A DNA stretch of 64,000 bases from Nitrospirota bacterium. GTDB taxonomy: Bacteria > Nitrospirota > Thermodesulfovibrionia > Thermodesulfovibrionales > Dissulfurispiraceae. The stretch is from the NCBI GenBank assembly GCA_040758355.1, contig JBFLWF010000004.1, forward strand, positions 1-64,000, in the 5' to 3' direction. The notes under the pieces are model-generated. The model was not told the origin of the DNA. It did no database searches and saw only the letters and a program-made list of their open reading frames with translations. The position numbers were made by a program, and so were the translations under genes. This document shows positions 19,380-42,376 of the stretch, piece after piece. The first letter of the stretch is position 1. Each line of letters starts with the position of its first letter.

Positions 19380-19640
19380 ATGAGCAAAGCAGAAAAGCTG
19401 TTGCAAAGGTTTTTGACAAAACCGAAGGATTTTACTTTTGAGGAGCTTGTCAGGTTATTAGAATGGTTAGGTTATTCCGAGATAAAGACCGGAAAGACAT
19501 CTGGATCAAGGGTGGCGTTTTACAATGATAAACTGGATGATATGATTAAGTTTCATAGGCCACACCCTTCATCTACTATGAAACGGTGCTATCTGGCAGA
19601 GATTGAACGGCAGTTAAAAGACAAGGGGGTTATAAAATGA
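19380..19640 (+). CDS. hicA: HicA family toxin
   Basis: GKTSGSRV.F ... HRPHP motif; overlaps hicB start. Confidence 0.85.
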   Translation: MSKAEKLLQRFLTKPKDFTFEELVRLLEWLGYSEIKTGKTSGSRVAFYNDKLDDMIKFHRPHPSSTMKRCYLAEIERQLKDKGVIK

Positions 19641-19972
19641 GCGATGTGATGACTTATAAGGGTTATATAGGCTCCGTCCACTACAGCGAGGATGATGAGG
19701 TTTTTTACGGCAAGATAGAAGCCATTAACGACCTTATCATGTTTGAGGGCGAGAGCGTTAAAGAGCTTAAAAAGGCATTTTATGAGGCTGTGGACGATTA
19801 CCTTGATACTTGTAAAAAAGTGGGGCGTCATCCGCATAAGCCGTTTAAGGGCAGTTTTAATGTAAGAGTGTCTCCGGCTGTTCACCGTATGGCTGCTGTC
19901 AAGGCAAAAATGCTTGGGATGTCTTTGAATCAATTCGTGCAAAAGGCTATAGAGGAGAAGGTGACGGTTTAA
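19637..19972 (+). CDS. hicB: HicB family antitoxin
   Basis: YKGY.GSV, AVDDYL..C, P.KPFKGSFNVR, SLNQ (RHH). Confidence 0.9.
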   Translation: MSDVMTYKGYIGSVHYSEDDEVFYGKIEAINDLIMFEGESVKELKKAFYEAVDDYLDTCKKVGRHPHKPFKGSFNVRVSPAVHRMAAVKAKMLGMSLNQFVQKAIEEKVTV

Positions 19973-20901: not shown

Positions 20902-20985
20902 GTTTATTATTGACACCATCGGCGCTGCTGAAAGGGATATTAAGGGCTAACTCATCCCCCTGTATCGGCTTACGGCTTGGATGGT

Positions 20986-21201
20986 TTAGGCGATCTTCTT
21001 TTGCCTTTTAGTTTTAATAATGTCAGTCAATGCTCTCAAAGCTTGATTTACAGAATCGTGATCAGGGAAAAATTTTGCAACATCTGGTTCGATAACCACA
21101 ACATTTGTGCCTTTTGCATACTTCTTTGCATATTTGCCCTGAACGCCTTTGCTGAAATCATACTCTTCAAGCATGTCTGAATCTTTTCGCATTCTCTTCA
21201 T
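20986..21201 (-). CDS. BrnA-like antitoxin
   Basis: EYDFSKG..GKY, DVA..F....VN.ALR; lies downstream of the brnT remnant. Confidence 0.7.
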   Translation of the reverse strand: MKRMRKDSDMLEEYDFSKGVQGKYAKKYAKGTNVVVIEPDVAKFFPDHDSVNQALRALTDIIKTKRQKKIA

Positions 21202-21449
21202 ATTGTTTCCTTTCATGTTTTGTCGCTTTTCTTGCGCTTATTATTCTGATTTTATCTCGTCTTTCCGTATGGACAACTACCAAAAGGCGATTGTCAACGG
21301 AGTTCCCAGTCCTCATCGTCGGAATGCAGGGGGTCATAAATCGTTAACGACAGGGTATCTTTAAAAACTGTACATGCCTCATCGAAGGATATTCCATGAA
21401 TTTTTAGATTCTTCTTTGCCTTGTTTTTATTCCATTCGAATAGAAGCAT
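21167..21449 (-). pseudogene. brnT: Frameshifted BrnT family toxin
   Basis: MLLFEWNKNKAKKNLKIHGISFDEA...HSDDED, then a frame change to GNSVDNRLLVVVHTERRDKIRIISARKAT. Confidence 0.8.
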
Positions 21450-21521
21450 AACTTGTTGTCTTTATTATAACTTGAGTCGGGAAGTTTAACAATTGCCGAA
21501 AGTTTTCATATTAAGCTTCGG

Positions 21522-21626
21522 CGTTGCGGCGGCGTGGAGCGCCAGTTTAATTGTCTTTATTATATTTATTTAAATCTAAAACCTTCTCTAACTCGTTGCC
21601 AGGCGGCGCTGCGCGCCGCCGCAACG
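21522..21626. repeat. GC-rich imperfect inverted repeat flanking an AT-rich spacer
   Basis: CGTTGCGGCGGCGTGGAGCGCC ... GGCGCTGCGCGCCGCCGCAACG. Confidence 0.55.
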
Positions 21627-21975
21627 TTCTCTTTTAAGTTTCTTCAACATTATGATAGATTATAGGAAGTAAGATTATCATAGTCAAGCAAAAAATCTTA
21701 TAAAACAATTGGAAACGGCTATGAAATGCAATATAATAATGCCATATTAATTGTTATATTGTTGAAATATAGTATTGCATATTAATTATGTTAGAGTCCT
21801 TTAAACATTTCTTGTCATCGAAAGGCAATAGAAGGGATTTTTAAAGCCGCATTATTTTATCTTTTATCGCCTTGAACGGTTTGGACTCGTGATTAATGAA
21901 TTCATTGTACCTATTTCCAGAAATGCTCATTGTGTGTTGACATAAATACAGCCTAAGGTCTATTTTAATCACTGA

Positions 21976-22683
21976 ATGAGCGCCACATCAGAAATTAACC
22001 GCGACCTGAAGGTCCTTCCATGCCTGTCTGTCATAGGGGATGAGTATCTCTCCCTTATAAGCGAGAAGGCCTTTGCAAGAAGATTTGCCAAAAATGAGGC
22101 GATATTCGCCGAATTAGATTCAATGAAGTTCTTTTTTGTTGTGAGGTCAGGGGCAATAAAATTATTCAAGACATCCAAAGAGGGTCGTGAGATCGTTGTT
22201 AAGATAATGGGGCCCGGAGAATTCTCCTGCTGTGCGCCTCTGTACACGGATGATGAAAGGTTCTTTATGAACGCAGTGGCAATCGAGGATTCCGTTATTG
22301 TGATGATCCCGTCGGACAGTTTCAAAGAGATGCTTAACAGCAGTATTAGCCCGATGGGATTGAGAATAATAAACGGCCTCTGCATGAGGATAAAATACCT
22401 TTCAAAGTTGGTCGAGGATCTTACATTTAAAGATGTCGAACAGAGAATAATTTTAACGCTTTTAAAGATGGCAGAAGAGAAAGCATCAGAAGAAAATATC
22501 GTTGCCCTTGCCGTAACACATCAGGATATTGCAGCTATGACAGGGACGGTAAGGGAGGTTGTATCGAGGACGATGGCAAGATTCAAAAGAGAGGGAGTTA
22601 TTGCCGACAGCAGCGCCAGAGGGTTCAAAGTAGATAAAGACAGGCTTTCCCATCTTCTGAAAAGAAAATATCCTTCCAACTGA
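21976..22683 (+). CDS. Crp/Fnr family transcriptional regulator
   Basis: cNMP-binding fold (G.IKLFK....GRE, GPGE), HTH THQDIAAMTGTVREVVSR. Confidence 0.9.
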   Translation: MSATSEINRDLKVLPCLSVIGDEYLSLISEKAFARRFAKNEAIFAELDSMKFFFVVRSGAIKLFKTSKEGREIVVKIMGPGEFSCCAPLYTDDERFFMNAVAIEDSVIVMIPSDSFKEMLNSSISPMGLRIINGLCMRIKYLSKLVEDLTFKDVEQRIILTLLKMAEEKASEENIVALAVTHQDIAAMTGTVREVVSRTMARFKREGVIADSSARGFKVDKDRLSHLLKRKYPSN

Positions 22684-22775
22684 GTCTTCACGGTTCACCC
22701 TCTACTCAGAATGTGAATTCCAGTTAACAAAATGCCGGCGTTTCTGATATTATAAATAGGGGCATTTCCTTCCTG

Positions 22776-23432
22776 ATGAAAAGAGAGACAGAGATACATC
22801 AACTCATTAAGGCCGTTGTTGACGGAGAGACCAAAAGCGCTGTTGAACTTTCGGAGAGGCTCCTCGGCAGCGGCTTTCCTGTAGAAGGGCTTATCCATGA
22901 AGGTCTTACGGCAGCGCTCCGCTCTCTTGATGCAAAATGCACGAATGAGGAGTTCAACCTCCTCGAAATAATGCTCGCAGGGCGTTCAATGATGGCGGTG
23001 ATGGATAAGGTGGTGGCAAAGTATCTGCCACAGTCTTCCATGGCAGAGCCTGCACCCGGAAGGACCATTGTTTTAGGCACTATAAGGGGCGATATCCATG
23101 AACTGGGGAAGCACGTGGTAAAAATGCTTATGAAGGCCAATGGCTTCAGGGTAATCGACCTTGGAAAGGATGTGAATCCAGCGAGTTTTGTAAAGGCAGC
23201 GGTAGTGGAAGGCGCAGGGTATATAGGGGTGAGCAGTCTGATAACGCTCACAATCCCTTACATCAGGGAGATCAGGGAGATCCTTTATAAAGAAGGGTTG
23301 CCCGATATAAAGGTACTGGCAGGCGGCGCCGCAATCCAGCAGGCAAGGCCAGATGACCTGAACGTGGATTATATAGCTAAGGATGCATTTGATGCATTGC
23401 ATTATCTCAATAGTGTCGGAGTTGGTGTTTAA
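22776..23432 (+). CDS. Corrinoid (B12-binding) protein, MtaC/MtbC-like
   Basis: Cap domain plus DIHELG (DxHxxG), DLGKDV, SSL, GGA. Confidence 0.9.
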   Translation: MKRETEIHQLIKAVVDGETKSAVELSERLLGSGFPVEGLIHEGLTAALRSLDAKCTNEEFNLLEIMLAGRSMMAVMDKVVAKYLPQSSMAEPAPGRTIVLGTIRGDIHELGKHVVKMLMKANGFRVIDLGKDVNPASFVKAAVVEGAGYIGVSSLITLTIPYIREIREILYKEGLPDIKVLAGGAAIQQARPDDLNVDYIAKDAFDALHYLNSVGVGV

Positions 23433-23443
23433 GAGGATGAATA

Positions 23444-24460
23444 ATGACATCATACGAGAGACTGCTTGCTGCGATCAACGGTGATTTTTCAGACAGGCCT
23501 CCTGTTGCTCCTGAGGTCTTTGGCATTACTGCAAGGCTTAACGGGTACAGGATTTCTCAGTATGTTACGGACGGAAGAATTATAGCCGAGAGCCAATTAA
23601 AGGCAAGGGAGGCCATTGGTTATGATATCCTGTTTGCCTTTGCAGACCTGTCTGTCGAGGCCGAGGCATTGGGATGCAACCTTCGTTACGAGGATGATGC
23701 ATACCCGTCGGTGAATGAGCATATTCTGCAAAATGTAGAGGATGTGAAGGGGCTAAAACTCCCTGACCCTTTAAATGACGGCAGGATGCCTGTTGTCATC
23801 GAGGCATGCAGGCGGCTCAGGGGATCCGCAGGGAACGAATGTGTAATTGCGGCATGCGTCATGGGTCCTGTGAGCATTGCCTCGCAGATAATGGGGCTTG
23901 AGGGTTTTCTTTATCAACTGGTTGACAATCCGGACGGCATAAATCAGGTTCTGGACTTCACCGAAAAGGTTGCAATAAGTTATGGAAGGGCACTCATAAG
24001 GGCAGGCGCCCATTGTCCCGTTGTCTTTGATCCCGTGGCTTCCCCTGCTGTTATCCCTCCATCCCTGTTTGTTCATTACGAAGCCCGGAGATTAAAGAGG
24101 ATGTACGACTCTTTCAGGGACGAAGGTTCGCCTATTTCATGGATAAGCATTGCCGGCGCAACCCAGAAAATCATGCCATATTTTAAAAAAGCAGGAATAA
24201 ATCTTGCTACAATAGATTACGTGGTGCCAATTTCCGAGGCATTTAAACTTGCCGATGATATTGCACTTAATGGGAACCTGAAACCTTACTCTTTTGTCTC
24301 ATGCTCTCCTTCTGAGATTAAAGAGGAGGTAAGAAGGTGCCTTATGGAGGCGAAAGGCAAAGGAAATTATATAATCGGCTCGGGATGCGAAGTGCCTGTT
24401 GAATCCAATATCGAGAACATCCGGGCAGTGGTAGAGGCAGCGAGGGACTTTAAATATTGA
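23444..24460 (+). CDS. Uroporphyrinogen decarboxylase/MtaA-CmuA family protein with degenerate Zn site
   Basis: DRPPV, VEAEALG, GRMP, GP.S.A, DP.AS, GNL.P, GSGCEVP; the expected HxC reads SIA. Confidence 0.8.
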   Translation: MTSYERLLAAINGDFSDRPPVAPEVFGITARLNGYRISQYVTDGRIIAESQLKAREAIGYDILFAFADLSVEAEALGCNLRYEDDAYPSVNEHILQNVEDVKGLKLPDPLNDGRMPVVIEACRRLRGSAGNECVIAACVMGPVSIASQIMGLEGFLYQLVDNPDGINQVLDFTEKVAISYGRALIRAGAHCPVVFDPVASPAVIPPSLFVHYEARRLKRMYDSFRDEGSPISWISIAGATQKIMPYFKKAGINLATIDYVVPISEAFKLADDIALNGNLKPYSFVSCSPSEIKEEVRRCLMEAKGKGNYIIGSGCEVPVESNIENIRAVVEAARDFKY

Positions 24461-24467
24461 GGATATC

Positions 24468-25082
24468 ATGAGATTTTTGGTGATAGCCTGTAAGATATTT
24501 GAGAGGGAAATAAATAAGATGCTGGGTGATGGGCATGGACATTCCATTGTTATGCTTGATTTCGGGTATCACAAAATGCCTTTTGTTCTTCAGCAGCGGA
24601 TTCAGGCAATAATCGACAATGCTTCGGATGTCGATGCCATCCTGCTGCTTTACGGTTACTGCGGCGGCACTTTAAAGCTCGATACAGCGGATTTGCCTGT
24701 GGTAATGCCAAAGGCCCACGACTGCTTTGACATGATGCTCGGAAGCAATGAGCGTTTCTCTCTCTTTTCAGACGAGCCCGGGACATATTTTCTTTCGGAA
24801 GGATGGGTGAGGAGAGACGGCACCCCTTTTGAAAAGGTAAGAGGTGCAAGAAAACGTTTGAAAGATGATGACGACAAGATCATCGAAGAGATGTATTCGG
24901 GTTATAAAAGACTTCTCTTTGTGAGAACAGGGATAGAGACAGAAGAAAGTATTTTAAGGGCAAGGCGTGCAGCCACAGAAATGGGATGGCAATTTGAAGA
25001 GAAAATCGCCGACCTTCCGATAATGAAAAAACTTTTTTCAGAGGAGTGGGACAGCGATTTTATTGTAATGAATCCGCAATGA
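24468..25082 (+). CDS. DUF1638 family protein
   Basis: IAC, LDFGYH..P, LYGYCG, HDC, PGTYFLS.GW; family usually found with corrinoid activators. Confidence 0.75.
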   Translation: MRFLVIACKIFEREINKMLGDGHGHSIVMLDFGYHKMPFVLQQRIQAIIDNASDVDAILLLYGYCGGTLKLDTADLPVVMPKAHDCFDMMLGSNERFSLFSDEPGTYFLSEGWVRRDGTPFEKVRGARKRLKDDDDKIIEEMYSGYKRLLFVRTGIETEESILRARRAATEMGWQFEEKIADLPIMKKLFSEEWDSDFIVMNPQ

Positions 25083-26776
25083 ACGATTCCATCAAACTGA
25101 TAATTAATCCATTGAAACGGCAGATCGGTTTAACTGCAAAGAGCAACCTCCTTGAGGTCTTCCTTGCCGAAGGGGTGAAAATACCTGTGCTCTGCAACAA
25201 AAACGGTTCATGCGGCAAGTGCCGTGTTGTGGTGAAGGCTGAGGCAAGCCCTGTAGCGGAGATCGAGATGCTGTCCCTCGGTGAAACATTGATAAGCGAG
25301 GGATACAGGCTGGCTTGCAGAACAGAAATACTCGGAAGCGGCGAGGTGTTCATCCCTGTGGAAAGCCGTGAAGATATACTGGAGAGCACCTATTTCGGCA
25401 ATGAACTGACAGCCATAAGGAATAAAGATTTTCCGTATCCTGTAAGGCATGGTATTCGGGGCGGAAAGGGGCTCGTGGGGGAGATGAAATCTCCCCCACG
25501 CTTGGCAGCCGTTGACATGGGAACAACAACATTAACAGGTTATCTTTTTGATCATAATGGTGATATTTTAAGCAATTGCTCCTGCTTTAATCCGACCACC
25601 CTTTATGGATGCGATATAATAACGAGAATAACAAATCTAAAGAATGGCAGTGACTTCCAGAAACTGAGAAACAGTCTCCTGTCGGAAATCAAAAGGCTCC
25701 TCAATACACTCTGTTTCAGGGCAAAGGACATTAATGCAGATAACGGAAAACCCGCCGTCCCTGACAGTATCTGCAAAATAGCCGTGTGCGGCAATACAAT
25801 AATGCAGCACATATTTATGGGTATAAACCCCGTAGAGATAGGGCTTTTCCCGTATAGGCCCATTGTTAAAGACCTCCTGCACATGAAGGCAGTTGAACTA
25901 AAGGATTTTCACATTATAGGATTATCGGCAGATGCGGAGGTCGTTATTGCCCCCTCTGTGAGCGGCTTTATAGGCGGTGATGCAGTCTGCGGTGTCCTCG
26001 CTACAAGATTGCATAAGTCGTCAGAACCCTGCTTATTGATAGACCTCGGCACAAACGGAGAAATGGTGCTCAATTACAGGGGAAATATATTCGCTGCATC
26101 TGCAAGCGCAGGGCCGGCCTTTGAGGGTTATCAGATAGGCTCGGGTATGAGGGCGACTATAGGGGCTATAGATTTTGTAAGAATCGACGATGAATCAAAC
26201 ATCCACTACAGCGTTATCGGAGGTGTAAGACCGAAAGGCATATGCGGAACAGGCGCCATATCTGCCGTATCCTCTATGATTAAACGAGGGATATTGAACG
26301 AAAGGGGACATATCATACCGCCCATTGCGACAGGCAGGATGAGGAAAGGTTCCATAGTAATAGCTACAGAAAACGAGACATCGATCGGCAGGCCGATTAT
26401 TTTTACGGATAAAGATATCGAAGTAATCCAGCAGGCAAAGGCAGCCTTTGCATCAGGCATCGCCTGTCTCCTCCGCGCAGCAGGGCTTGAGGCCGGACAG
26501 CTCAAGAAAATCCTTATTGCAGGTGCATTCGGAAGCAGCGTGGACGTGGAGAGCCTGAAGACAATAGGTCTTATACCGTACAAAACCAGTGCAGATATAA
26601 TATCTGTCGGAAATGCCGCCGGAGCAGGCATTGCGATGACCCTCCTCTGCGAAGATGCAGAAAGGGAGGCAATGGAAGTGTCCGGCGCCATAAAAACAGT
26701 GGAGTTTGCCTTCATGAAGGAGTTTGAGGACGAATTTCTGGAGGCATTATTTTTCAGGACCAATGCGATCCGTTAA
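25079..26776 (+). CDS. ASKHA-type ATP-dependent reductive activator of corrinoid proteins (RACo-like) with N-terminal [2Fe-2S]
   Basis: CNKNGSCGKC...RLAC, DMGTTT, GFIGGD, DLGTNGE, AGPAFEG, GICGTG, AGAFG, GNAA; ATG at 25079 overlaps upstream stop. Confidence 0.88.
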   Translation: MNDSIKLIINPLKRQIGLTAKSNLLEVFLAEGVKIPVLCNKNGSCGKCRVVVKAEASPVAEIEMLSLGETLISEGYRLACRTEILGSGEVFIPVESREDILESTYFGNELTAIRNKDFPYPVRHGIRGGKGLVGEMKSPPRLAAVDMGTTTLTGYLFDHNGDILSNCSCFNPTTLYGCDIITRITNLKNGSDFQKLRNSLLSEIKRLLNTLCFRAKDINADNGKPAVPDSICKIAVCGNTIMQHIFMGINPVEIGLFPYRPIVKDLLHMKAVELKDFHIIGLSADAEVVIAPSVSGFIGGDAVCGVLATRLHKSSEPCLLIDLGTNGEMVLNYRGNIFAASASAGPAFEGYQIGSGMRATIGAIDFVRIDDESNIHYSVIGGVRPKGICGTGAISAVSSMIKRGILNERGHIIPPIATGRMRKGSIVIATENETSIGRPIIFTDKDIEVIQQAKAAFASGIACLLRAAGLEAGQLKKILIAGAFGSSVDVESLKTIGLIPYKTSADIISVGNAAGAGIAMTLLCEDAEREAMEVSGAIKTVEFAFMKEFEDEFLEALFFRTNAIR

Positions 26777-26807
26777 AGTTAAAGAGAAAACAGGAGTTGC
26801 GGAAACC

Positions 26808-28175
26808 ATGGGCAAACAGCAGGGGTCCCCAAAAAGTCAAAGACCTTTTGGGGCAGAATGGACTGCAGCTGCCCTTTCGACAGTTATTAAACTGAATAAC
26901 ATCATAGGTTTTCTTCCAATAAATATCGACAAGACTTTAAAGGCAGTTGTTGACGAGACATACAACCTTTTCAACCCCCAGATGTGCTGCATATATGTGG
27001 TTGGAGAAGGCAATAACCTTGAACTTGCTGCCTTCAGGACATCAGATGGTTTAATTCCCGATTTCCATGTCAACTCAACTACGGAGGCATGTTCTACATT
27101 GAGAGACGGACTGCCTTATTTAGCCTGTAGGGGAACAAGCTGCAGTGCGTCCATCTGTCCAAACCGCAAGACCCCTGATAATGCCGACATATCCCACGCC
27201 TGCATCCCAATGATAACAGGCAACGATATTCACGGTGTTTTGTCCCTGACATATCAACCGGAAAGGGTTTTGCCGCGGGATAAGTTAAACGTGCTCCTTT
27301 CAATAGCAAACCAGGTATCCATGGCAATCCAGAGGTATAACCTTTTCGAAAAGCTCAGGAAAGAGAAGTCCGAGATTGAGAGGACTTACAGCGAAATAGC
27401 CACCCTCAATGAAATGCTTACAAAGAAGATAGAGGAGCTGAAAGACACCCAGAACAGGCTTATCCAGTCGGAAAAGCTTGCTGCCACAGGGGAGCTTACG
27501 GCCGGTCTGTGCCATGAGATCAACAATCCAATAAGCATAATCCTGAACCGGATTGAGTGTCTTGAAATGGAAGCAAAGGAGCTTCTTTTGCCTGAGAGCG
27601 TGCTGAAAGACCTCGATGTTATATCTTCATATGCTGCAAAGGTTTCATCCATAGTTCAGGACCTCCTTATCTTCTCAAGGCATCATCCGGTAGAATTCGG
27701 ACATATAAATATAAAAGCAATTATTGAAACGGTTGCAGGGATGCTCCATGACGACCTGGACAGAAATGGATGCATCGCGCACATGGATATTCCGCATTCC
27801 GTCCCGGATATTTATGGAGATGCAGACAGATTGGAGCAGGTGTTCAGGAATCTGATAGCAAATGCAATCGATGCCATGCCTGATGGAGGGAATATCTATA
27901 TAGATGCCCGAATCCCCTCTGAAAGACCTGATTTCCTTTTAGTCAGGATAAAGGACGAGGGAGAGGGGATAGCAGAAGAAAATCTGCACAGGATATTCGA
28001 CCCCTTCTTTACAACTAAAAAATTGGGTAAGGGTTCGGGTCTCGGGCTGTCCATCTGTTATGGAATAATAAAGAATCACGGCGGCGATATCACTGTAAAG
28101 AGTGTCCTGAATAGCGGCACTATTTTCAGCGTGTATCTGCCTTTAAGACAGGGAATGGGTGCTGGGTGTGAATAA
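26808..28175 (+). CDS. Cytoplasmic GAF-domain sensor histidine kinase (Cys-rich GAF)
   Basis: GAF (CIPM...GVL, IANQVSMAI), coiled coil, CHEINNP, DEGEG, FDPFFTT, GSGLGL; ATG 26808 has a caggag RBS. Confidence 0.88.
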   Translation: MGKQQGSPKSQRPFGAEWTAAALSTVIKLNNIIGFLPINIDKTLKAVVDETYNLFNPQMCCIYVVGEGNNLELAAFRTSDGLIPDFHVNSTTEACSTLRDGLPYLACRGTSCSASICPNRKTPDNADISHACIPMITGNDIHGVLSLTYQPERVLPRDKLNVLLSIANQVSMAIQRYNLFEKLRKEKSEIERTYSEIATLNEMLTKKIEELKDTQNRLIQSEKLAATGELTAGLCHEINNPISIILNRIECLEMEAKELLLPESVLKDLDVISSYAAKVSSIVQDLLIFSRHHPVEFGHINIKAIIETVAGMLHDDLDRNGCIAHMDIPHSVPDIYGDADRLEQVFRNLIANAIDAMPDGGNIYIDARIPSERPDFLLVRIKDEGEGIAEENLHRIFDPFFTTKKLGKGSGLGLSICYGIIKNHGGDITVKSVLNSGTIFSVYLPLRQGMGAGCE

Positions 28176-29541
28176 AGGAAGGATTCTGGTTATAGAAGAT
28201 GACGAGGAGATGCTTGAAAACTATTCAAGGCTCCTTAAAAGGATGGATTATGAGTGCATCATGGAAAAGGACAGTGTAAAGGCCGCAGAAGAGTTGAGCC
28301 GGCTTTCGCCCGATGTTATTCTCACTGACCTCAGAATGCCCGGCAAAAGCGGTTTTGACATCCTCAGTGCTTCAAAGGAACTCAATCCCGACATGCCTGT
28401 AATTTTAATAACCGCCTATGCAAACATCTCAACCGCTGTAGAGGCTGTAAAACAGGGGGCCTTTGATTTCATTGCCAAACCATTCACATCGGAACAGCTC
28501 AGGATAGCCATTGAAAGGGCAATGAGGCAGAAGACCCTTACCGATGAGAACAAGCAGCTTAAGGAGCAACTAAAGGCATCTTCCATGATAGACGAAATTA
28601 TTGGCAAGAGTCCTGCAATTCAGGAAGTCATCGAGGTCATAAAACGGGTGTCACAGACAGATGCAAATATCCTGATAACAGGCGAAAGTGGAACAGGGAA
28701 GGAACTGGTTGCAAAGGCAATCCATGCAAGGAGCCTTAGAAAGCCGGAGCCCTTTATCCCTGTTGATTGCGCAGCGCTTCCGGAGAATCTCCTCGAAAGT
28801 GAATTGTTCGGATATGAGAAAGGCGCCTTTACGGGTGCAAACACAAGCAAGCCCGGTCTCTTCGAGACTGCGCATGGAGGCACACTGTTCCTTGATGAGA
28901 TCGGCGAGATTCCGATGACAATGCAGGCAAAACTCCTGAGGGCAATCCAGGAGCGGCAGGTGAGGCGGCTCGGCAGTAACAAGTTCATATCCATAGATGT
29001 CAGGATAATATCGGCAACGAACAGGGAAATTAAAAAAAGCGTACAGGAGAAAACATTCAGGGAGGACCTTTATTATCGTCTCAATGTCATCCAGATAAGC
29101 GTTCCTCCTCTTAGAGAGAGAAGGGGTGATATCCCTGTTCTTGCATTACATTTTATGGATAGATTTGCTGCACTGAATAAGAAAGACATAAGAAGTATTT
29201 CTCCCGATGCAATGGGGGTAATGGAAAACTATTCGTGGCCAGGCAATGTGAGGGAGCTTCAAAATATCATGGAAAGGGCAGTTGTTTTGTGCGATGCGGA
29301 TAAAATAACTATAGAGGATTTGCCAAAAGAGGTGTGTATGGCGCCGCCTCCCCTCCCTGTAGAAAACCTGCTGTATAAGGACGCTAAAGAGGCGTGGCTT
29401 GCTGCATTCGAAAAGAATTACCTCTCAAGCCTTCTGAAAGGCACATCAGGCAACATATCGCGGGCAGCGCAAAAGGCAGGAATCGACAGAAAAACAATTC
29501 ACCGGCTTATTAAGAGGTATAAGCTGAACGCTGAGACTTAA
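28168..29541 (+). CDS. sigma54-dependent response regulator (NtrC family)
   Basis: Receiver, GESGTGKE, GAFTGA, WPGNVREL, Fis HTH. Confidence 0.95.
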   Translation: MNKGRILVIEDDEEMLENYSRLLKRMDYECIMEKDSVKAAEELSRLSPDVILTDLRMPGKSGFDILSASKELNPDMPVILITAYANISTAVEAVKQGAFDFIAKPFTSEQLRIAIERAMRQKTLTDENKQLKEQLKASSMIDEIIGKSPAIQEVIEVIKRVSQTDANILITGESGTGKELVAKAIHARSLRKPEPFIPVDCAALPENLLESELFGYEKGAFTGANTSKPGLFETAHGGTLFLDEIGEIPMTMQAKLLRAIQERQVRRLGSNKFISIDVRIISATNREIKKSVQEKTFREDLYYRLNVIQISVPPLRERRGDIPVLALHFMDRFAALNKKDIRSISPDAMGVMENYSWPGNVRELQNIMERAVVLCDADKITIEDLPKEVCMAPPPLPVENLLYKDAKEAWLAAFEKNYLSSLLKGTSGNISRAAQKAGIDRKTIHRLIKRYKLNAET

Positions 29542-29659
29542 ATGTCTCAGTGGGGAAATTCTGCGCCACTCCAAAACAATTACTCTCCTTCCTTATAATT
29601 CTTAATAACTCTTAAATTTTTGAAATGCTGCCTGTATTGTCTGGGGCATTTATGTCTCA
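29532..29659 (+). promoter_or_regulatory. Three 18-bp upstream activator sites
   Basis: TGAGACTTAAATGTCTCA (29532-29549), TGGGGAAATTCTGCGCCA (29551-29568), TGGGGCATTTATGTCTCA (29642-29659). Confidence 0.65.
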
Positions 29660-29722
29660 ATGCACATCCATGAGGAAGTAAATTTAGTGTAAGATACTTG
29701 TTTTTCTTGCTGTTTTTCAATA

Positions 29723-29738
29723 AGGCACGATATTTGCT
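29723..29738 (+). promoter_or_regulatory. sigma54 (-24/-12) promoter of the nos island
   Basis: AGGCACGATATTTGCT, GG-N10-GC. Confidence 0.8.
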
Positions 29739-29767: not shown

Positions 29768-29785
29768 CTGTAACTTAAGTTACAG
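29768..29785. promoter_or_regulatory. Perfect 18-bp palindrome, Crp-family-like operator
   Basis: CTGTAACTTAAGTTACAG (TGTAA-N6-TTACA). Confidence 0.5.
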
Positions 29786-29919: not shown

Positions 29920-31755
29920 ATGCCAAAACAGACCTTTCATGTAGTAATTCCAGACTATAAATACTGGCGGCAGAATATCAAGTGCCAGACAGGATGTCCT
30001 GTAAATACCGATTCCAGAGGATATGTAAGGGCCATATCGGATGGCGATTATGAAAAGGCATACTGGATAGCAAGGATGCCGAATCCCCTTGCATCCATAT
30101 GCGGCAGGGTATGCGCAGCACCATGCGAACTTGCCTGCAGGAGGGGCTGGATTGACGCCTCGATATCGATAAGGGCATTAAAGAGGTTTGTTACCGAGAA
30201 ATACGGTGTAGAGATATATAAAGATAAAAAGGATTTTGCAAAGGATTTCATAAACAGGTTTAAAGAAGAAGGTGTCGGTGTATCAGGCGTAACAGCTAAA
30301 GACATATCAAAGCCTATTTCCATTGTCGGCGCCGGGCCTGCCGGATTAGCATGCGCGCATGAGCTCGCACTCATGGGATATAAGCCCATAATCTATGAAA
30401 TGGAGAAGGTAGCCGGCGGCATGTGCGCTGTCGGGATTCCGCCGTACAGGCTTCCGAGGGAAATACTCCAGGCAGAGATAGATGCGATAAAGGCACTGGG
30501 TGTCGAGATAAGGCTTGGAGTTCAGATAGGCAAGGATATTCCAATAAAAAAATTATACGATGAATCTGCTGCGGTGCTTCTGTCTGTTGGCGCAAAAAAG
30601 TCGAGGATGCTTCCCATAGAAGGCGCTAACGGCAAAGGGGTATTGGGCGGAGTTGATTTCTTAAGAGACGTATTTACAGGCAAAGATGTGAAGATAGGGC
30701 CGAAGGTTGTAGTTATAGGGGGCGGCAATGTTGCATATGATGTGGCAAGGACTTCGGTAAGGCAGAAGGGTATTGAATCTGTCTCTCTCGTATGCCTTGA
30801 GGACTTAGAACATATGCTTGCCGACAAAATAGAGATAGAAGAAGGTGCCGAAGAAGGCATTGAGAGGTTTAACAGCTTTGGCCCTGAAAAGATAAATCTC
30901 GATGAAAACGGAGCTGTGAAGTCAATAACCTTCAAAAAGGTTATATCCATATTCGACAGCGAGGGGAATTTCAATCCGAGGTTTGACGAATCAGACACAA
31001 TGACACTTCCGGCAGATACAATCTTCTTTACAGTAGGACAGGCCTTTGACCTTTCATTTCTTGAAAATTGCGGACTCGATATCGAGAGGACGCCGAGAGG
31101 GACGATAAAGGTAGAACCGGACAAGATAACCACCTCTCTGCCAGGCCTCTTTGTGGCAGGCGACCTGTCATACGGCCCGAGGATTGTGATAGATGCTGTC
31201 GCGAGCGGTAAAAAGGCCGCGCTGGTGATCCATGAGTATATAAGCGGAAGGCATTTAACCATTAAGACATCAGAGATGCACATGGAGCATTACGGCAAGG
31301 ATGTTTTAAATAACGAGGTTTCGCATCCAGAGGATTACGAAAAGATAAAAAGGATCCCTGTTCCGGCACTGCCAACAGAAGAGAGGATAAAGGCCGTATT
31401 TGCTCCTGTTGAACTCGGTTTTACAAAGGATATGGCAGAGGGGCAGGGAGGGAGATGCCTGAACTGTGCTGTCAATACAATATTCAACGGCGACAGATGC
31501 ATACTCTGCGGAGGCTGTTCCGATGTATGCCCTGAATACTGTCTGAGGCTTGTAAGCCTCGAAAATATAAGAGGGGATGAGACCCTGACAGCCCTTTATA
31601 AAAACAGATACGGGAAAGAGCCTGAAGGCACGGGTTCGGCAATCATAAAGGACGAAGACAGGTGCATCAGGTGCGGTCTCTGCGCGAAGAGATGCCCTGT
31701 TGATGCAATAACAATGGAGAGATTTTTATTTAAGGAGGTATGGGTAAGTGAGTAA
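29920..31755 (+). CDS. GltD/NfnB/DsrL-like FAD-dependent NAD(P)H oxidoreductase with C-terminal 2x[4Fe-4S]
   Basis: [58 protein letters not shown]. Confidence 0.85.
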
Positions 31756-32224
31756 CGAGGCTCATGAGAAAACAGGGATGTCAAGGCGGGACTTTTTAGG
31801 TCTTGCATCATTAGGCGCAGCCATAATTTCATCGCTGGCTGTATTAGCAGGAACATTTAGGATGTTCAAACCGAATGTTCGTTATGAAGAGTCGACAAAA
31901 TTCAAGATAGGCAAGCCGGAAGACTTCCCTGCAGGAACAGTAAGAAAGCTTGATGACAAAGGCATCTTTATATTTTCAAAGGATGACGGCATCTATGCGA
32001 TATCGGCTATATGCACGCATCTCGGCTGCATCGTGAATCAGGTAGATTGGGGATTCCTGTGTCCATGCCACGGCTCGAGATACAATGAGCATGGAAAGGT
32101 CATTGGAGGTCCTGCACCGAGGAGCCTTGCATGGCTCGAGATAAGCGAGGCTATTGACGGCAGCCTTGAAGTTGACACGGCAAAGAGTGTTCCTGTCGGG
32201 ACAAAGCTCAAACTTTATGCATAA
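31748..32224 (+). CDS. Rieske [2Fe-2S] protein (Tat-exported)
   Basis: SRRDFL; CTHLGC; CPCHGS; GPAPRSL. Confidence 0.93.
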
Positions 32225-32244
32225 AAAATAAAGAGGTCAAGGCT

Positions 32245-33801
32245 ATGAATGAAATGAAACAATCCGGAATCGATGTATTTAAACATAACATTAAGTCTTT
32301 ACTGGGGTCGTTTGCAGGCTCCTATCTGAGAAGCGGCAAGCCCACATCCGACAAGTCGAGGGCGGCTGCAATGTTCAATAACTTTTTCCTCCATGTCCAG
32401 GGGGTCAAGACGCACATAAATACCTTAAGACCGACTTATACATTGGGTCTGGGGCTTATATCCTTCTTCCTTTTGATCATCACCGTCATATCGGGCGTCC
32501 TTCTTATGGTCTACTACAACCCATCGATAGAGCACGGGTATACCAGCGTAAAGGACATAAACTATGTGGTCTTTGCCGGCAAACTGATAAGGAATGTGCA
32601 TAAATGGGCAGGCGAAGGAATGATAATCTTTGTCCTGCTGCACATGGCAAGGGTCTTCTACACAAGCTCATACAAAAAAGGAAGGGAATTCAACTGGGTT
32701 GTCGGCATAGTACTGCTGATACTCACATTCGGAATCAACCTATCTGGTTATATGCTTCCATGGGATCAGCTTTCATACTGGGCATTGGTTATTGTTGCAA
32801 ACATCATACAATCTCCAAAAGAGATCACAGACTCGCTGGGCATAACAAACTTCTTCGATATCGGCGGCTTCTCTAAAGAGCTATTCCTCGGCGGTTTAAC
32901 TGCAGGCAAGGAATCCCTCACAAGGGTCTATCTACTCCATATAATGCTCTTTCCAATCTTTTTATTCATATTCCTCGGCGTGCATTTCTGGAGGATAAGA
33001 AAGGATGGAGGTCTCACAAAACCGGATGTGTTTGAGCCAAAGCCCATCGATGCAGGATTGGCAGCAATTCCTGAAAAAAGAGGAGGCATATTCCCTACAA
33101 ACAAGACATATGGCCTTATGGAGCTTGCCCATGGCAGGACGCCTGTTGTTGACAGGGATGTGGAAAACACCGTGCTCAGCTGGCCGAATCTCTTAATAGC
33201 AGAGGCAGCGTTGTTTGTATTCTGCCTTGCCGGCGTCACTGTTTATTCATTCTTTATAGACGCGCCGCTTAAAGAATTAGCTAATCCGATGATACCAGAA
33301 AACCCTGCAAAGGCGCCGTGGTATTTTCTTGGTCTTCAGGAACTTCTCTCATACTCTGCATTTATGGGCGGGGTAGGCCTTCCGGGATTGGCGCTCTTAG
33401 GGCTTGCACTTATACCGTATCTTGACAGGGAAGAACAGCATGTAGGAATCTGGTTTTCTAACAAACAGGGGAAGCGTGTTGCCATCGAGGCGCTGATTGC
33501 TGGCACGATTGTAGTAATCGGACTTCTTGCATTCGTGATAAATTTCGGATGGTTCAGGAACTGGTGGCCCAATGTTCCGCAGCTTTTAATCACCCTCATA
33601 AACCCGGGTAATATCTGGGTGGGCTTTATGATTGCGTGGTCGATTTATGTGATAAAGAGGACAGGTTCAACGAGGATGGGTGCAATAGCCTTATTCACGA
33701 TGTTCCTGATCAGCTTTCTGATTTATACATATGTAGGAACTGAATTAAGAGGGCCAAACTGGGATTTCTTCTGGTCGAAGAGCCAGTGGCCGGCTCATTA
33801 A
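32245..33801 (+). CDS. Cytochrome b (fused b6 + subunit IV) of a Rieske/cyt b complex
   Basis: RNVH, LHMAR, GYMLPWDQ, LLH, VHF; PAKAPWYF in place of PEWY. Confidence 0.9.
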   Translation: MNEMKQSGIDVFKHNIKSLLGSFAGSYLRSGKPTSDKSRAAAMFNNFFLHVQGVKTHINTLRPTYTLGLGLISFFLLIITVISGVLLMVYYNPSIEHGYTSVKDINYVVFAGKLIRNVHKWAGEGMIIFVLLHMARVFYTSSYKKGREFNWVVGIVLLILTFGINLSGYMLPWDQLSYWALVIVANIIQSPKEITDSLGITNFFDIGGFSKELFLGGLTAGKESLTRVYLLHIMLFPIFLFIFLGVHFWRIRKDGGLTKPDVFEPKPIDAGLAAIPEKRGGIFPTNKTYGLMELAHGRTPVVDRDVENTVLSWPNLLIAEAALFVFCLAGVTVYSFFIDAPLKELANPMIPENPAKAPWYFLGLQELLSYSAFMGGVGLPGLALLGLALIPYLDREEQHVGIWFSNKQGKRVAIEALIAGTIVVIGLLAFVINFGWFRNWWPNVPQLLITLINPGNIWVGFMIAWSIYVIKRTGSTRMGAIALFTMFLISFLIYTYVGTELRGPNWDFFWSKSQWPAH

Positions 33802-33850
33802 TTAAGAGAGCAAGTGAGTGATCAAATTTTAAGATAAAAGAGGGAGAGAC

Positions 33851-35266: not shown

Positions 35267-35300
35267 TTGAAATTAAATATAAAGTGTGAGAGGATTGGAG

Positions 35301-36059
35301 ATGAAAGTTAAAGTATTTGTATTGTCGGTTATTCTCTTAATGTCTCAACAAACAGTCTTTGGAGCAGAGGCTCAAAAGGGCGATTTAGGCAAGAAGGTTT
35401 ATGAAGAGCGCTGCCAGATTTGCCATGGCGCAAAAGGCGATGGCAAGGGACTGGTGGGCGTTATGAAGAGGTCGGAAAAGAGTGGAAGAATTATAAATGT
35501 AGAGGCGAGGGACTTTACCCTCGGTGTCTTCAGGTTCCGCACCACCTCAACCGGATGTCTGCCTGCAAATGAAGACCTTGTATCTTTAGTAAATAAGGGC
35601 ATTCCAAGGTCATTTATGCCGCCTCATAAAGACCAGCTTTCAATGGAAGAAAAGAAGGCTGTTGCCGACCATATAAAGACCTTTTCAACGAGGTGGAAAG
35701 AGGAAGAACCCTGCAAATCCATACCTGTAAAAAAACCAAAATGGGTTGGCAGTCGTTCTTCTGTTGAAAAGGGCAAAAAGATATATAAAGAGATGAAATG
35801 CTGGGAATGCCACGGCGATGATGGAAAAGGCAAAGGACCAAAGTCGGATACGATCAAAGACGACTGGGGAAAACCTATAGTGCCGTTTGATTTTACTACA
35901 GGCGCTACCAAGATGGGAGATGCCCCTGAAAATGTTTATACAGCATATACAACAGGACTTGACGGCACGGGTATGCCTTCATATGAGGACTCTCTGAAAG
36001 AGGACGAGAGATGGCATCTTGTCTCATATACGCTCAAATTGATGGGAAAGGTTAAGTAG
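35301..36059 (+). CDS. Periplasmic diheme cytochrome c, paralog 1
   Basis: Signal peptide; CQICH, CWECH; distal MP motifs. Confidence 0.88.
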   Translation: MKVKVFVLSVILLMSQQTVFGAEAQKGDLGKKVYEERCQICHGAKGDGKGLVGVMKRSEKSGRIINVEARDFTLGVFRFRTTSTGCLPANEDLVSLVNKGIPRSFMPPHKDQLSMEEKKAVADHIKTFSTRWKEEEPCKSIPVKKPKWVGSRSSVEKGKKIYKEMKCWECHGDDGKGKGPKSDTIKDDWGKPIVPFDFTTGATKMGDAPENVYTAYTTGLDGTGMPSYEDSLKEDERWHLVSYTLKLMGKVK

Positions 36060-36218
36060 GGCCTCTGAAGGCCTTTATCTTACAGCACAAGGGGGTGAAT
36101 ATCGAAGAAAAAAGCACGGGGGAATTAGATTAAGGGGTAGCAGTATCTTTTAAACAGTCGGGTAAAAGGAGCAACAAACAGTATCAATAAAAATTGATAC
36201 AAACGGGGAGGCAGAAAA

Positions 36219-37004: not shown

Positions 37005-37042
37005 TTTCTTCATGAAACCGAGAAAAAGAAGGAGGTTTGGAA

Positions 37043-40098: not shown

Positions 40099-40101
40099 TT
40101 C

Positions 40102-42366: not shown

Positions 42367-42376
42367 GGTGAATTTA

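Follow-up and report, generated by a model that had tools for sequence, protein, structure and literature searches.

A candidate corrinoid-dependent sensor cassette upstream of a nitrous oxide reductase operon in a Nitrospirota bacterium

Introduction

The nearest relatives of two of the proteins considered here are components of corrinoid-dependent methyl transfer, namely MtaA (PDB 4ay7) and the corrinoid proteins covered by the MtaC/MtbC/MtgC models. MtaA carries the motif LHICGN, the HxC of which we take to be zinc ligands. The DUF1638 family has been linked genetically to RamA-like B12 reactivation, through cofitness and a shared distribution (PMC5764234), and a further report deals with the inactivation of bacterial cobalamin-dependent methionine synthase by N2O (PMC13059711). 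Homologs of such proteins precede a two-component system and a nitrous oxide reductase operon in the window, that is, the whole 64,000-nucleotide stretch of Nitrospirota DNA that was analyzed; all features given below lie on its forward strand.

Our main reading, to which we assign a probability of about 0.5 with the claim of N2O as the ligand left out, is that a corrinoid protein, a zinc-less MtaA-like barrel, DUF1638, and RACo together make up the device through which a soluble GAF histidine kinase receives its signal. RACo, probably with the help of DUF1638, would use ATP and its 2Fe−2S cluster to hold the corrinoid on its protein in the Co(I) state. The MtaA-like barrel would dock on the corrinoid protein as MtaA does on MtaC and, having no thiol-activating zinc, would offer a pocket above the cobalt rather than transfer a methyl group to a thiol. 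Reaction with an oxidizing or alkylating small molecule would turn Co(I) into Co(II) or Co(III)-R, and the N-terminal GAF-like domain of the kinase would read the change. The kinase would then phosphorylate the NtrC-type regulator, which would bind GAGACA-N4-TGTCTC repeats behind ntrC and open a sigma54 promoter at 29723, turning on a Rieske/cytochrome b/cytochrome c/NosZ operon.

Results

The run of seven genes proposed in the initial annotation was recovered in full, each gene at its position by open reading frame and domain matches, with successive gaps of 92, 11, 7, −37, −53, and −17 nt from the first gene to ntrC. It comprises a Crp/Fnr-family regulator (21976 to 22683; Pfam cNMP_binding and HTH_Crp_2), an MtaC-type corrinoid protein (22776 to 23432; B12-binding_2 and B12-binding domains with GDIHELG, SSL, and GG motifs), a URO-D/MtaA-like TIM-barrel protein without the HxC zinc ligands (23444 to 24460; ISIAG replaces HICG), a DUF1638 protein assigned by domain match (24468 to 25082), a RACo-type reductive activase (25046 to 26776; Fer2, RACo_middle, and RACo_C_ter), a soluble histidine kinase (26724 to 28175; N-terminal GAF-like sensor domain, HisKA, and HATPase_c), and an NtrC-type response regulator (28159 to 29541; REC, a sigma54 AAA+ domain with GAFTGA at 222, and HTH_8). 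A consensus scan yielded a weak sigma70-like promoter candidate 5′ of the corrinoid protein gene (22724 to 22753; TTAACA-18-TATTAT with TG). The Crp/Fnr gene holds the place ascribed to it but is a neighbor rather than a fixed member of the block: it is missing upstream of the cassette in a 94%-identical relative (G022), and its homologs in L019 and L032 (44 to 46% identity) lie between ntrC and the respiratory genes. Judged by gene content, the conserved cassette consists of the corrinoid protein, the MtaA-like protein, sometimes DUF1638 and RACo, and then a four-cysteine GAF kinase and the NtrC-type activator.

The 378-nt intergenic region 3′ of ntrC contains two putative upstream activator sites recognized by their repeat pattern, GAGACTTAAATGTCTC (29533 to 29548, overlapping the ntrC stop codon) and GGGGCATTTATGTCTC (29643 to 29658), followed by a sigma54 −24/−12 promoter, AGGCACGATATTTGCT (29723 to 29738), with one mismatch to TGGCAC-N5-TTGC. 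By itself the sigma54 site does not exceed chance, five −24/−12 matches being found in the window versus 4.6 expected; a comparable site lies 3′ of ntrC in 10 of 13 orthologous loci, and rpoN is present in the genome. The GAGACA-N4-TGTCTC repeats behind ntrC are conserved. The looser pattern GNGNC-N5-[TG]GTCNC occurs behind ntrC in 10 of 14 loci, with 26 matches across the 6.3 kb of intergenic sequence that follows ntrC versus 21 across the remaining 267 kb of these loci, and the stricter GRGRCW-N4-TGTCYC has five matches in the genome, four of them within the window, including two in the intergenic region behind ntrC. Of 12 loci inspected 5′ of the corrinoid protein gene, 11 gave no such repeat and one gave a weak match. 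The position of the repeats and of the promoter therefore points to the operon downstream, and not the corrinoid genes, as the target of the activator, and control of that operon by the regulator is very likely.

The sigma54 promoter is followed, ahead of the first gene of the operon, by a perfect palindrome, TGTAACTTAAGTTACA (29769 to 29784), a candidate Crp/Fnr-type box to which Crp may bind. It has two perfect copies in 2.77 Mb and recurs in G022, and L019 and L032 have boxes resembling it. A possible second target of the activator (52829 to 52921), consisting of the UAS-like GGGGCAATGATGTCCC (52829) and the sigma54-like TGGCATCTATTTTGC (52907), precedes small Cys-rich open reading frames and a copper P-type ATPase gene (54998 to 57460); since it is a single site, it is regarded as tentative.

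According to domain matches, the operon starts with genes for a GltD-like Fe−S flavoprotein, a Rieske protein, cytochrome b, and three c-type cytochromes (29920 to 37004), in an order also seen after ntrC in G022, L030, and L032. These are followed by a Tat-type (clade I) NosZ (37037 to 38899; TIGR04244, 815.7 bits, cut-off 625) and by nos accessory genes (39019 to 48639) for NosR halves, NosD, NosF, NosY, SCO1-like and thioredoxin-like proteins, and NosL; the N-terminal half of NosR is encoded by its own gene, and the C-terminal half is fused to NosD. The sigma54 promoter had been thought to start the nosZ island; it does precede the operon, but the first genes are for electron transfer, and nosZ lies 7.1 kb further on.

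A synteny comparison across genomes, as suggested in the initial annotation, showed that the link with nos recurs: NosZ is encoded downstream of the cassette in six loci of five lineages, both as the Tat-type enzyme (in the window) and as the Sec-type enzyme (in G024 and L024). Among 41 relatives, three have the cassette and nos, adjacent in all three, two have only nosZ, two have only the kinase, and 34 have neither; four genomes of the same genus lack both cassette and nos, and the two relatives with only nosZ, G027 and G039, carry a nosZ of 74 to 76% identity with no cassette upstream. An NxrA-like molybdoenzyme is encoded downstream in one lineage of two genomes (E = 2e-276 to PDB 7b04), and RdhA/B/C are encoded downstream in one Clostridiaceae MAG (TIGR02486, 165.6 bits, cut-off 160.35). 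With these NxrA-like and reductive dehalogenase outputs, the cassette family is not N2O specific.

The occurrence of NxrA-like outputs beside NosZ would suit a sensor of oxidants or N-oxides in general, in which Co(I)/Co(II) or a GAF cysteine site reports NO, nitrite, O2, and N2O alike and switches on high-potential respiratory chains. The operons usually open with the GltD-like/Rieske/cytochrome b module whatever the terminal enzyme (window, G022, G013, L021, L030, and L032), and L033 has this module too, after an inserted cytochrome c/Fer4_11/NrfD unit. Also in favor of such a sensor, nos genes in denitrifiers usually respond to NO, not to N2O. For the Nss regulators of Wolinella, N2O is named only as a “possible signal” (PMC11539149). 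On the other side, nirK was not found in the genome, nor was a convincing nirS, and the organism is therefore not obviously a maker of NO itself; a Co(I)-reactive substrate would also match the reductive dehalogenase output better than a general redox signal would.

The switch from nos to NXR argues in the same direction. In a tree whose root lies on a single, very long branch (L025), the NXR-linked cassettes nest among the nos-linked ones as sister to L030 (support 99/98). Among the columns that do not vary across six nos-linked cassettes, the NXR pair has changed in 20 of 253 input-protein columns versus 10 of 271 transmitter/regulator columns, whereas a control pair, which is more divergent, has 3 input versus 11 transmitter/regulator changes (Fisher p = 0.009); the comparison covers one evolutionary event, in two related genomes. 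Among the changes on the input side are N278T, K280D, and P281T, which share one loop of the MtaA-like barrel. A generic sensor would need no such disproportionate change, and we consider that reading somewhat unlikely. The sister cassettes appear to be the same device retuned to an NxrA-like nitrate/nitrite enzyme and to a reductive dehalogenase.

The DxHxxG motif that had been read in the corrinoid protein is present as GDIHELG (D106 to G111) and is invariant in 8/8 orthologs, and KCT in the cap domain is invariant as well; the protein scores 110.8 bits against TIGR02370, under the cut-off of 215.3. The MtaA-like protein (186.3 bits against the mtaA_cmuA model, cut-off 235.4) aligns to MtaA with E = 1e-27, placing ISIAGA opposite LHICGN. 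The reported loss of the zinc motif was thereby corroborated, with the His and Cys missing in all eight orthologs, while the later GSGCE cysteine is retained. In DUF1638, of which the cassette gene is the single copy in the genome, C8, H35, C65, and C86 are invariant in seven orthologs. The activase has intact RACo motifs (2Fe−2S ferredoxin domain cysteines C50, C56, C59, and C91; ASKHA motifs DMGTTT at 157 and DLGTNGE at 332).

The kinship of the corrinoid protein and the MtaA-like protein with methyl-transfer components would fit a sensor of methylation state or corrinoid supply, in which the MtaA-like protein exchanges methyl groups between the corrinoid protein and a small molecule, the kinase distinguishes methyl-Co(III) from Co(I) or holo- from apoprotein, and one-carbon or B12 status rather than an electron acceptor is reported. 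The MtaA-like protein retains the third cysteine of the MtaA site, B12 supply would be relevant to the RdhA-linked cassette, and CobS points to at least a part of cobalamin synthesis in the genome. However, the zinc ligands for thiol methylation are gone, and methyl-donor methyltransferases of the MtaB and MttB families were found neither in the block, as noted initially, nor anywhere in the window or the 99%-complete genome. The cassette encodes the sole small corrinoid protein of the genome, and of its two URO-D family genes the other scores as HemE-like, which upholds the view that no complete methyl-transfer pathway is present. There is no evident reason for one-carbon or B12 status to govern N2O or NXR-type reductases, and no cobalamin riboswitch was found in the window. 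We find this explanation improbable.

No segment of the kinase is hydrophobic enough to suggest a membrane span (Kyte-Doolittle maximum over 19 residues, 1.44). In its GAF-like domain, C88, C123, C145, C160, and H115 are invariant in nine orthologs, the Clostridiaceae one included, and the predicted structure is a GAF fold (pLDDT 85) with tetrapyrrole-binding and regulator GAF domains among its structural neighbors. The four cysteines could be a sensor of their own, and together with the histidine they could hold a metal or Fe−S center that responds directly to redox state or NO. The GAF domain might then be the whole sensor, holding an Fe−S cluster, metal, or tetrapyrrole responsive to redox, NO, or O2, with the corrinoid genes merely cotranscribed for an unrelated task. 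One kinase ortholog, on contig 31 of G036, does lack adjoining corrinoid genes, but this locus is damaged, with an internal stop codon, an inserted 23S-IVP gene, and an adjoining IS element. In the other 17 of 18 loci corrinoid genes lie directly 5′ of the kinase: in 14 both the corrinoid protein and MtaA-like genes, and in three, which end at a contig edge, still the RACo or MtaA-like gene.

In a wider Nitrospirota family, a homologous sensor domain (hhalign probability 95.6%, E = 1e-8) directly follows the corrinoid protein and MtaA-like genes, in part with RACo, in 18 of 18 further loci. These domains lack the four GAF cysteines and are equally tied to the corrinoid genes; one locus encodes a fusion of the sensor domain and a kinase with a RACo-like Fer2 domain. 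The corrinoid genes, moreover, have no partner pathway in the genome, and a GAF domain acting by itself seems to us an improbable explanation. Seven cassettes lack both DUF1638 and RACo; in the four genomes of this kind that were checked, RACo is encoded elsewhere in three to five copies, and one has no DUF1638 anywhere. That a two-component system controlling nos has corrinoid genes upstream by accident is already very unlikely, since, frequent as unrelated neighbors of two-component genes are, the genes overlap, the linkage holds in 17/18 and 18/18 loci, and the order is kept across the tree, where sequence divergence reaches ~50%, and extends to another phylum.

Discussion

The corrinoid genes are thus probably the input of the kinase. 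We infer that the kinase contacts the corrinoid proteins and that it is the state of the cobalt that is read. Co(I)-based chemistry is plausible because the RACo motifs are intact, DUF1638 is tied to RamA-like B12 reactivation, and N2O inactivates cobalamin-dependent methionine synthase; that the signal works through a change of Co(I) is put forward tentatively. N2O or a tightly linked oxidant is the likeliest signal in this organism, without being universal for the family, while N2O itself as that signal is doubtful. The initial annotation, which proposed an N2O-sensing system, is therefore supported in part: the corrinoid genes as input to the kinase and the repeated link with nos find support, and N2O specificity as a property of the family is weakened. 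The relatives that have nosZ and no cassette, the cassettes devoid of DUF1638 and RACo, and the invariant GAF cysteines also weigh against parts of it.

MtaA has the HxC in LHICGN, whereas the MtaA-like protein of the cassette has ISIAGA in its place and keeps the cysteine of GSGCE. No paper describing the cassette was found in the literature, and it appears to represent a previously undescribed mode of respiratory-substrate sensing based on B12.

The corrinoid gene block and its genome

Seven genes on the forward strand, defined by ORF and Pfam calls, lead up to the nos operon of the window: a Crp/Fnr gene (21976–22683) and those of an MtaC-type corrinoid protein (22776–23432), a URO-D/MtaA-like protein (23444–24460), DUF1638 (24468–25082), a Fer2-RACo activase (25046–26776), a GAF-HisKA-HATPase kinase (26724–28175), and a REC-sigma54 AAA-HTH_8 activator (ntrC, 28159–29541). 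Successive genes, starting with the corrinoid gene, are 11, 7, −37, −53, and −17 nt apart, and 378 nt of intergenic DNA come after the last. The initial annotation had presented these genes as one tightly packed run. All seven are indeed present and packed or overlapping, but the Crp/Fnr gene stands upstream of the cassette in the window only and is not a fixed member of it; a DUF441 gene occupies that place in a 94%-identical relative (G022), and a Crp/Fnr homolog lies between ntrC and the respiratory genes in two other loci.

The source genome is a 2.77-Mb bin, 99% complete, in which CobS, rpoN, and NrfA are present and neither nirK nor a convincing nirS was found. The block had been described as free of an MtaB/MttB-type methyltransferase, and none was found even in the whole genome. 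Nor does the genome contain a second small corrinoid protein, the remaining PF02310 matches lying in frames of 363 to 498 aa. Its second RACo gene is stand-alone on contig 14, with purL and cysS on either side. Only one other URO-D gene is present, on a different contig; it is HemE-like and scores 457 bits, which is why a role of the MtaA-like gene in making haem for the numerous cytochromes was considered and dropped. A search of the window with Rfam returned no family and hence no cobalamin riboswitch.

Directly upstream of the Crp/Fnr gene is an AT-rich gap of 1.1 kb (20902–21975; 39% GC) with small minus-strand ORFs and a GC-rich inverted repeat (~21515–21625). This gap may be an island border, because four genomes of the same genus have neither the cassette nor nosZ. 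Elsewhere in the window, a HicA/HicB toxin-antitoxin pair (19380–19972) is inserted in a hydrogenase-4/Mrp-like gene row, between a fused 30/49-kDa subunit gene and a NuoB-like gene, and an LCIB-type beta-carbonic anhydrase homolog (2509–3222; 201 bits) lies amid CBS-domain proteins and CitMHS/Na-sulfate-type transporters.

Cassette proteins and their family assignments

The corrinoid protein (218 aa) consists of a B12-binding_2 cap (PF02607) and a B12-binding Rossmann domain (PF02310), and its GDIHELG sequence (DxHxxG motif) is invariant in 8/8 orthologs. It has no HTH and scores 19.3 bits with the CarH model (cut-off, 400) and 110.8 with TIGR02370 (cut-off, 215.3); scores with the MtgC, MtbC, and MtaC models are also under their cut-offs. 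The MtaA-like protein matches PF01208 (232 bits), and its top PDB match is MtaA (4ay7; E = 1e-27, residues 4–335). The LHICGN sequence of MtaA, whose His and Cys we take to be the zinc ligands for thiol activation (HxC...C), aligns with ISIAGA. As claimed in the initial annotation, the zinc motif is thus lost: His and Cys are missing in 8/8 orthologs, and the third cysteine of the MtaA site (C315, in GSGCE) is retained. The scores are 186.3 for TIGR01463 (cut-off, 235.4) and 133 for the MtaA equivalog (cut-off, 400).

The RACo protein (PF00111, PF17651, and PF14574, the last at 246 bits) has kept ferredoxin cysteines C50/C56/C59/C91, presumably the 2Fe-2S site, as well as DMGTTT and DLGTNGE, presumably the ASKHA phosphate-binding motifs. 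It is below equivalog level with 319.5 bits for AcsV (cut-off, 800) and 126 for TIGR04270 (cut-off, 500). In DUF1638, three cysteines and one histidine are invariant in the ortholog alignment, and a PDB sequence search gave no match under E = 0.3.

The N-terminal domain of the kinase was modeled as a GAF fold (pLDDT 85), and its Foldseek neighbors were generic GAF domains only, with no informative metal-binding relative among them. Four cysteines and one histidine of this domain are invariant in nine orthologs, and the kinase has no membrane-type hydrophobic stretch. The activator comprises REC, a sigma54 AAA+ domain with GAFTGA at 222, and HTH_8; the top NCBIfam matches of the two-component pair are AtoS/AtoC, under the cut-offs. 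All hallmarks of an NtrC-type sigma54 system were found, namely the activator domains, a cognate kinase, a −24/−12 promoter, upstream repeats, and rpoN. Complex prediction of the corrinoid protein, the MtaA-like protein, and the GAF domain gave a score of 0.00 (mark, 0.32), which, from a run without controls, weighs neither way.

Conservation of the cassette

The kinase was searched in 40 relatives, the sensor-domain alignment was searched against GTDB (one genome per species) and JGI metagenomes, and the MtaA-like protein was searched across the phylum; together these searches yielded 18 loci with a window-type kinase. Corrinoid and MtaA-like genes are directly upstream of the kinase in 14 of them, and in three others, on short contigs, a RACo or MtaA-like gene is the last one visible upstream. 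The one locus without corrinoid genes (L013, on contig 31 of genome G036) has a stop codon in the kinase match, a 23S-IVP gene ahead of ntrC, and an IS element behind it. On contig 79, the same genome has a full corrinoid cassette (L036) that ends in a hybrid GAF kinase-receiver and has no sigma54 activator. DUF1638 and RACo are both present in seven cassettes, RACo alone in one, and neither in seven; four checked genomes with cassettes of the last kind have three to five RACo genes elsewhere, and one of these genomes is without any DUF1638.

At the protein level, 26 clusters carry a window-type sensor domain (at least 54% identity), and those that are named are only GAF or signal-transduction histidine kinases from Nitrospirota. 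One 660-aa protein (P0005; sensor domain 86% identical) has RACo_C_ter ahead of GAF-HisKA-HATPase; this may be a true fusion of RACo and kinase or the product of a gene call that read across the 53-nt overlap.

A wider family became visible through the MtaA-like protein, which occurs at 37% identity or more in 21 of 401 sampled Nitrospirota genomes. We examined 18 additional loci, 16 of them new. The corrinoid protein gene is directly upstream of the MtaA-like gene in 18/18, and directly behind the two (with RACo in addition in 12) all 18 have a gene with a conserved N-terminal domain of ~170 aa. This domain is homologous to the GAF-like domain of the window (hhalign 95.6%, E = 1e-8, 88 columns), is without the four cysteines, and, in the annotated loci, heads kinases of varied architecture. 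In one such locus (L044, 7026–9098), a RACo-like 2Fe-2S ferredoxin domain, the cassette sensor domain, PAS, and a kinase core are parts of one 690-aa protein, whose gene comes directly after those of the corrinoid and MtaA-like proteins.

Operons behind the cassette

The activator gene of the window is followed by genes for a GltD-like Fe−S flavoprotein of NAD(P)H type, a Rieske protein, cytochrome b, and three c-type cytochromes (29920–37004), which serve, and share an operon with, a Tat-type (clade I) NosZ (TIGR04244, 816 bits). Behind nosZ come a split NosR, nosF, nosY, SCO1-like genes, and two NosL genes. The gene for the FMN-binding N-terminal half of NosR stands by itself (359 aa); the NapH-like 4Fe-4S C-terminal half and NosD make up one fusion protein of 754 aa (both within 39019–42366). 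In the relative G024, each of the three parts has a gene of its own.

Nine loci show a terminal enzyme, which is NosZ in six (five lineages, both clades), NxrA-like in two, and RdhA in one; two further loci end inside Rieske/cytochrome b/cytochrome c genes. NosZ is Tat-type in the window and G022, 72% identical to the window protein in L019, and Sec-type in G024 and L024 (TIGR04246, 863 and 879 bits), and L030 contains the first 92 nosZ codons before the contig ends. In G013 and L021 (the NXR pair), the front module of the window operon stands instead ahead of a 1,170-aa molybdoenzyme with full-length similarity to Kuenenia NxrA (7b04; E = 2e-276), accompanied by Fer4_11, EB_dh, and NarJ-like partners. 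In L025 (892–8356), from a Clostridiaceae MAG, genes for a corrinoid protein, an MtaA-like protein, a Cys4 GAF kinase, and an NtrC-type activator precede rdhA (TIGR02486, 165.6 bits; cut-off, 160.35), a 98-aa gene, and an FMN_bind/Fer4_5 RdhC-like gene. This locus also has TGTCAC-type repeats between cassette and rdhA and is bordered by a fragment of a group II intron maturase and by an IS200 transposase. The cassette family is therefore wider than N2O.

In the 41 closest genomes, cassette and nosZ occur together in three (adjacent in each), nosZ alone in two, the kinase alone in two, and neither in 34; as the genomes are kin, these counts are descriptive.

Regulator sites and direction of control

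Behind ntrC, two inverted repeats, GAGACTTAAATGTCTC at 29533 and GGGGCATTTATGTCTC at 29643, precede a candidate sigma54 −24/−12 site, AGGCACGATATTTGCT, at 29723, all on the forward strand. The strict repeat pattern has five matches in the 2.77-Mb genome, four of them within the window; an extra match resembling an upstream activator site, on contig 61 near a ShlB-type transporter gene, is uninformative. When the pattern is relaxed and the loci are taken together, the 6.3 kb of intergenic DNA behind ntrC contains 26 matches (10/14 loci) and the other 267 kb contains 21. A −24/−12 site lies behind ntrC in 10/13 loci, and in G024 it is found ~80 nt before the Sec-type nosZ. Upstream of the corrinoid gene, no activator repeat was found in 11/12 loci. 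Given repeats and −24/−12 sites behind ntrC and, in all but one locus, none ahead of the corrinoid gene, the regulator very probably acts on the downstream operon. On these predicted sites, the corrinoid genes would be co-expressed with the kinase and would not be a target of the regulator. Autoregulation from upstream of the corrinoid gene was considered and rejected, the predicted repeats or sigma54 site being absent there in 11/12 loci.

Two further features of the window may belong to the same circuit. The stretch from the sigma54 promoter to the first gene contains a perfect palindrome, TGTAACTTAAGTTACA (29769–29784, forward strand), which is conserved in G022; similar boxes in L019 and L032 adjoin Crp/Fnr genes. 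The palindrome suggests additional Crp/Fnr control of the operon. It has two perfect copies in the genome, the second of which, on contig 2 between a ChrB-like gene and a TPR-peptidase gene, is uninformative. Farther downstream, an activator-site-like repeat at 52829 and a sigma54-like −24/−12 site at 52907 stand ahead of a 93-aa signal-peptide ORF, a 66-aa Cys-rich ORF, and a copper P-type ATPase (region ending at 57460), and may mark a second target through which copper supply for NosZ comes under the same regulator.

Input and output

A maximum-likelihood tree of the concatenated corrinoid protein, MtaA-like protein, kinase, and regulator (12 rows, the short L028 row left out) was rooted on the long Clostridiaceae branch. 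The NXR pair branches from within the nos-linked group, where L030 is its sister (support 99/98), and L024, linked to Sec-type nosZ, is basal. We then counted substitutions in columns invariant in six nos-linked cassettes, with L032 and L037 as the control pair. The NXR pair has changed 6 of 89 such columns in the corrinoid protein, 9 of 107 in the MtaA-like protein, and 5 of 57 in the sensor domain (control pair, 1 in each), as against 4 of 85 in the kinase core (control pair, 3) and 6 of 186 in the regulator (control pair, 8). Three of the changes, N278T, K280D, and P281T, fall in one loop of the MtaA-like protein. For input versus transmitter, Fisher's test gives p = 0.009, a value that stems from one evolutionary event and an imperfect control; for that reason these counts give a hint, and no more, that the input proteins have been retuned where the output is NXR.

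A proposed corrinoid-based input device

The most economical account of the cassette is that corrinoid protein, barrel partner, and activase form an input device for the kinase, and that the kinase, by way of sigma54, then turns on a terminal-reductase operon. It is established chemistry that N2O and organohalides both react with Co(I) corrinoids. Since these are two of the three substrates, and both are Co(I)-reactive, the outputs favor a Co(I)-consuming signal that is reset by RACo, as the initial annotation had proposed for N2O. In mechanistic terms, ATP-driven RACo would hold a dedicated corrinoid protein as sacrificial Co(I) inside the zinc-less MtaA-like barrel. This Co(I) would be oxidized by N2O or, in retuned versions, by an organohalide or a nitrogen oxyanion, and the GAF kinase would read the loss of Co(I) and switch on the matching reductase via sigma54. 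Kinetically inert electron acceptors would then be detected by a sacrificial super-reduced B12 protein, and the window would contain the first molecularly defined N2O sensor; we give this reading a probability of roughly one in four. N2O is the leading candidate for the signal of the window cassette, although its being the ligand itself is likewise a tentative proposition, less likely than not.

Doubtful as well is a sensor of oxidants in general or of N-oxides, a proposal to be weighed with the NosZ and NxrA-like outputs on one side and the RdhA output on the other. It is distinctly improbable that the cassette senses methylation state or B12 supply; the relevant evidence is the kinship of its proteins with methyl-transfer components and the want of a substrate methyltransferase in the genome. 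Equally improbable is a cysteine-based GAF sensor to which the corrinoid genes are unrelated, given invariant cysteines in the window-type domain and a cysteine-free homolog behind the same corrinoid genes in the wider family.

To our knowledge, no receptor for N2O has been defined in molecular terms. The cassette is a concrete, testable candidate that rests on the oxidation of Co(I) corrinoid, the one well-known biological reaction of N2O, and it comes with a defined promoter and predicted binding sites. If the account is true, and irrespective of what the ligand is, two-component systems would gain a new class of signal input, made up of a corrinoid protein, a methyltransferase-like protein, and an activase that depends on ATP, and DUF1638 and many orphan MtaA-like genes would acquire a function. 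The account would also help to predict when environmental N2O sinks, here groundwater-type Nitrospirota, express NosZ.

Comparison with known systems

Our literature search, which covered few subscription journals, returned no description of such a cassette or of a corrinoid-kinase link to nos. The closest relatives by family are the MtaA/MtaC and MtbA/MtbC systems with RamA/RACo, which share with the cassette a DxHxxG corrinoid protein, a URO-D-fold partner, and an ATP-dependent 2Fe-2S/ASKHA activase. Unlike MtaA/MtaC, the cassette has no HxC zinc ligands, its genome has no substrate methyltransferase, all its NCBIfam scores are under the family cut-offs, and its genes form one operon with a kinase and a sigma54 activator.

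CarH/LitR and AerR/PpaA use a four-helix cap and a Rossmann B12-binding module for regulation rather than catalysis; their cue is light or the binding of B12, and their direct target is DNA or a repressor. The cassette resembles CarH and AerR in using this module for regulation, but it has no DNA-binding domain (CarH score of 19 versus 400), and its Co(I) activase, driven by ATP, suggests redox chemistry in the dark. With NtrC/AtoC/ZraR-type systems it shares REC-AAA+-HTH_8 with GAFTGA, upstream inverted repeats, and a −24/−12 promoter; it differs in its input, a soluble GAF kinase paired with corrinoid genes, and in its target, a respiratory reductase operon. A GAF-containing sigma54 activator that senses NO is known in NorR.

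In type 1 mlp clusters, a corrinoid protein and a RACE activase are found together with several MtaA-like proteins (Kountz & Balskus, PMC10418091). In the accessible sections of that article, a cluster of this type needs two Mlps or more, Mlp2 and Mlp3 being the minimum, and the proposed role lies in methyl-sulfur/selenide metabolism; there, "kinase" occurs solely in enzyme names, "two-component" is absent, and no kinase partner is mentioned. The window cassette, in contrast, has one URO-D family gene, not two or more, and its proposed role is signaling. For DUF1638, the excerpted text of Price et al. 2018 (PMC5764234) reports that Phaeobacter inhibens requires this protein and a RamA-like protein to make methionine by the B12-dependent route, and that the two proteins show almost the same presence/absence across Alphaproteobacteria; the prediction of B12 reactivation is repeated in the available part of PMC12478193. 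As far as the split methionine synthase system is described there, it likewise sets DUF1638 with a RACo/RamA-like activase beside a small B12-binding protein, but the client in that system is methionine synthase, and here it is a corrinoid protein without a catalytic partner, ahead of a kinase.

Inactivation of a cobalamin enzyme by N2O in bacteria is the subject of PMC13059711, to judge from its accessible portion. According to the accessible sections of PMC11033732, where the word "corrinoid" is absent, Tat-type NosZ and NxrA are common in Thermodesulfovibrionia. N2O is named as a possible signal for the Nss Crp/Fnr regulators of Wolinella succinogenes, which are reported to mediate a response to it (PMC11539149, accessible sections). 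As presented there, these regulators are tied to nos in a nondenitrifying N2O reducer with NrfA, and the window, too, contains a Crp/Fnr gene and a palindrome of Crp type; the cassette differs from Nss in protein family and promoter type, and the Crp/Fnr gene is not among its constant members.
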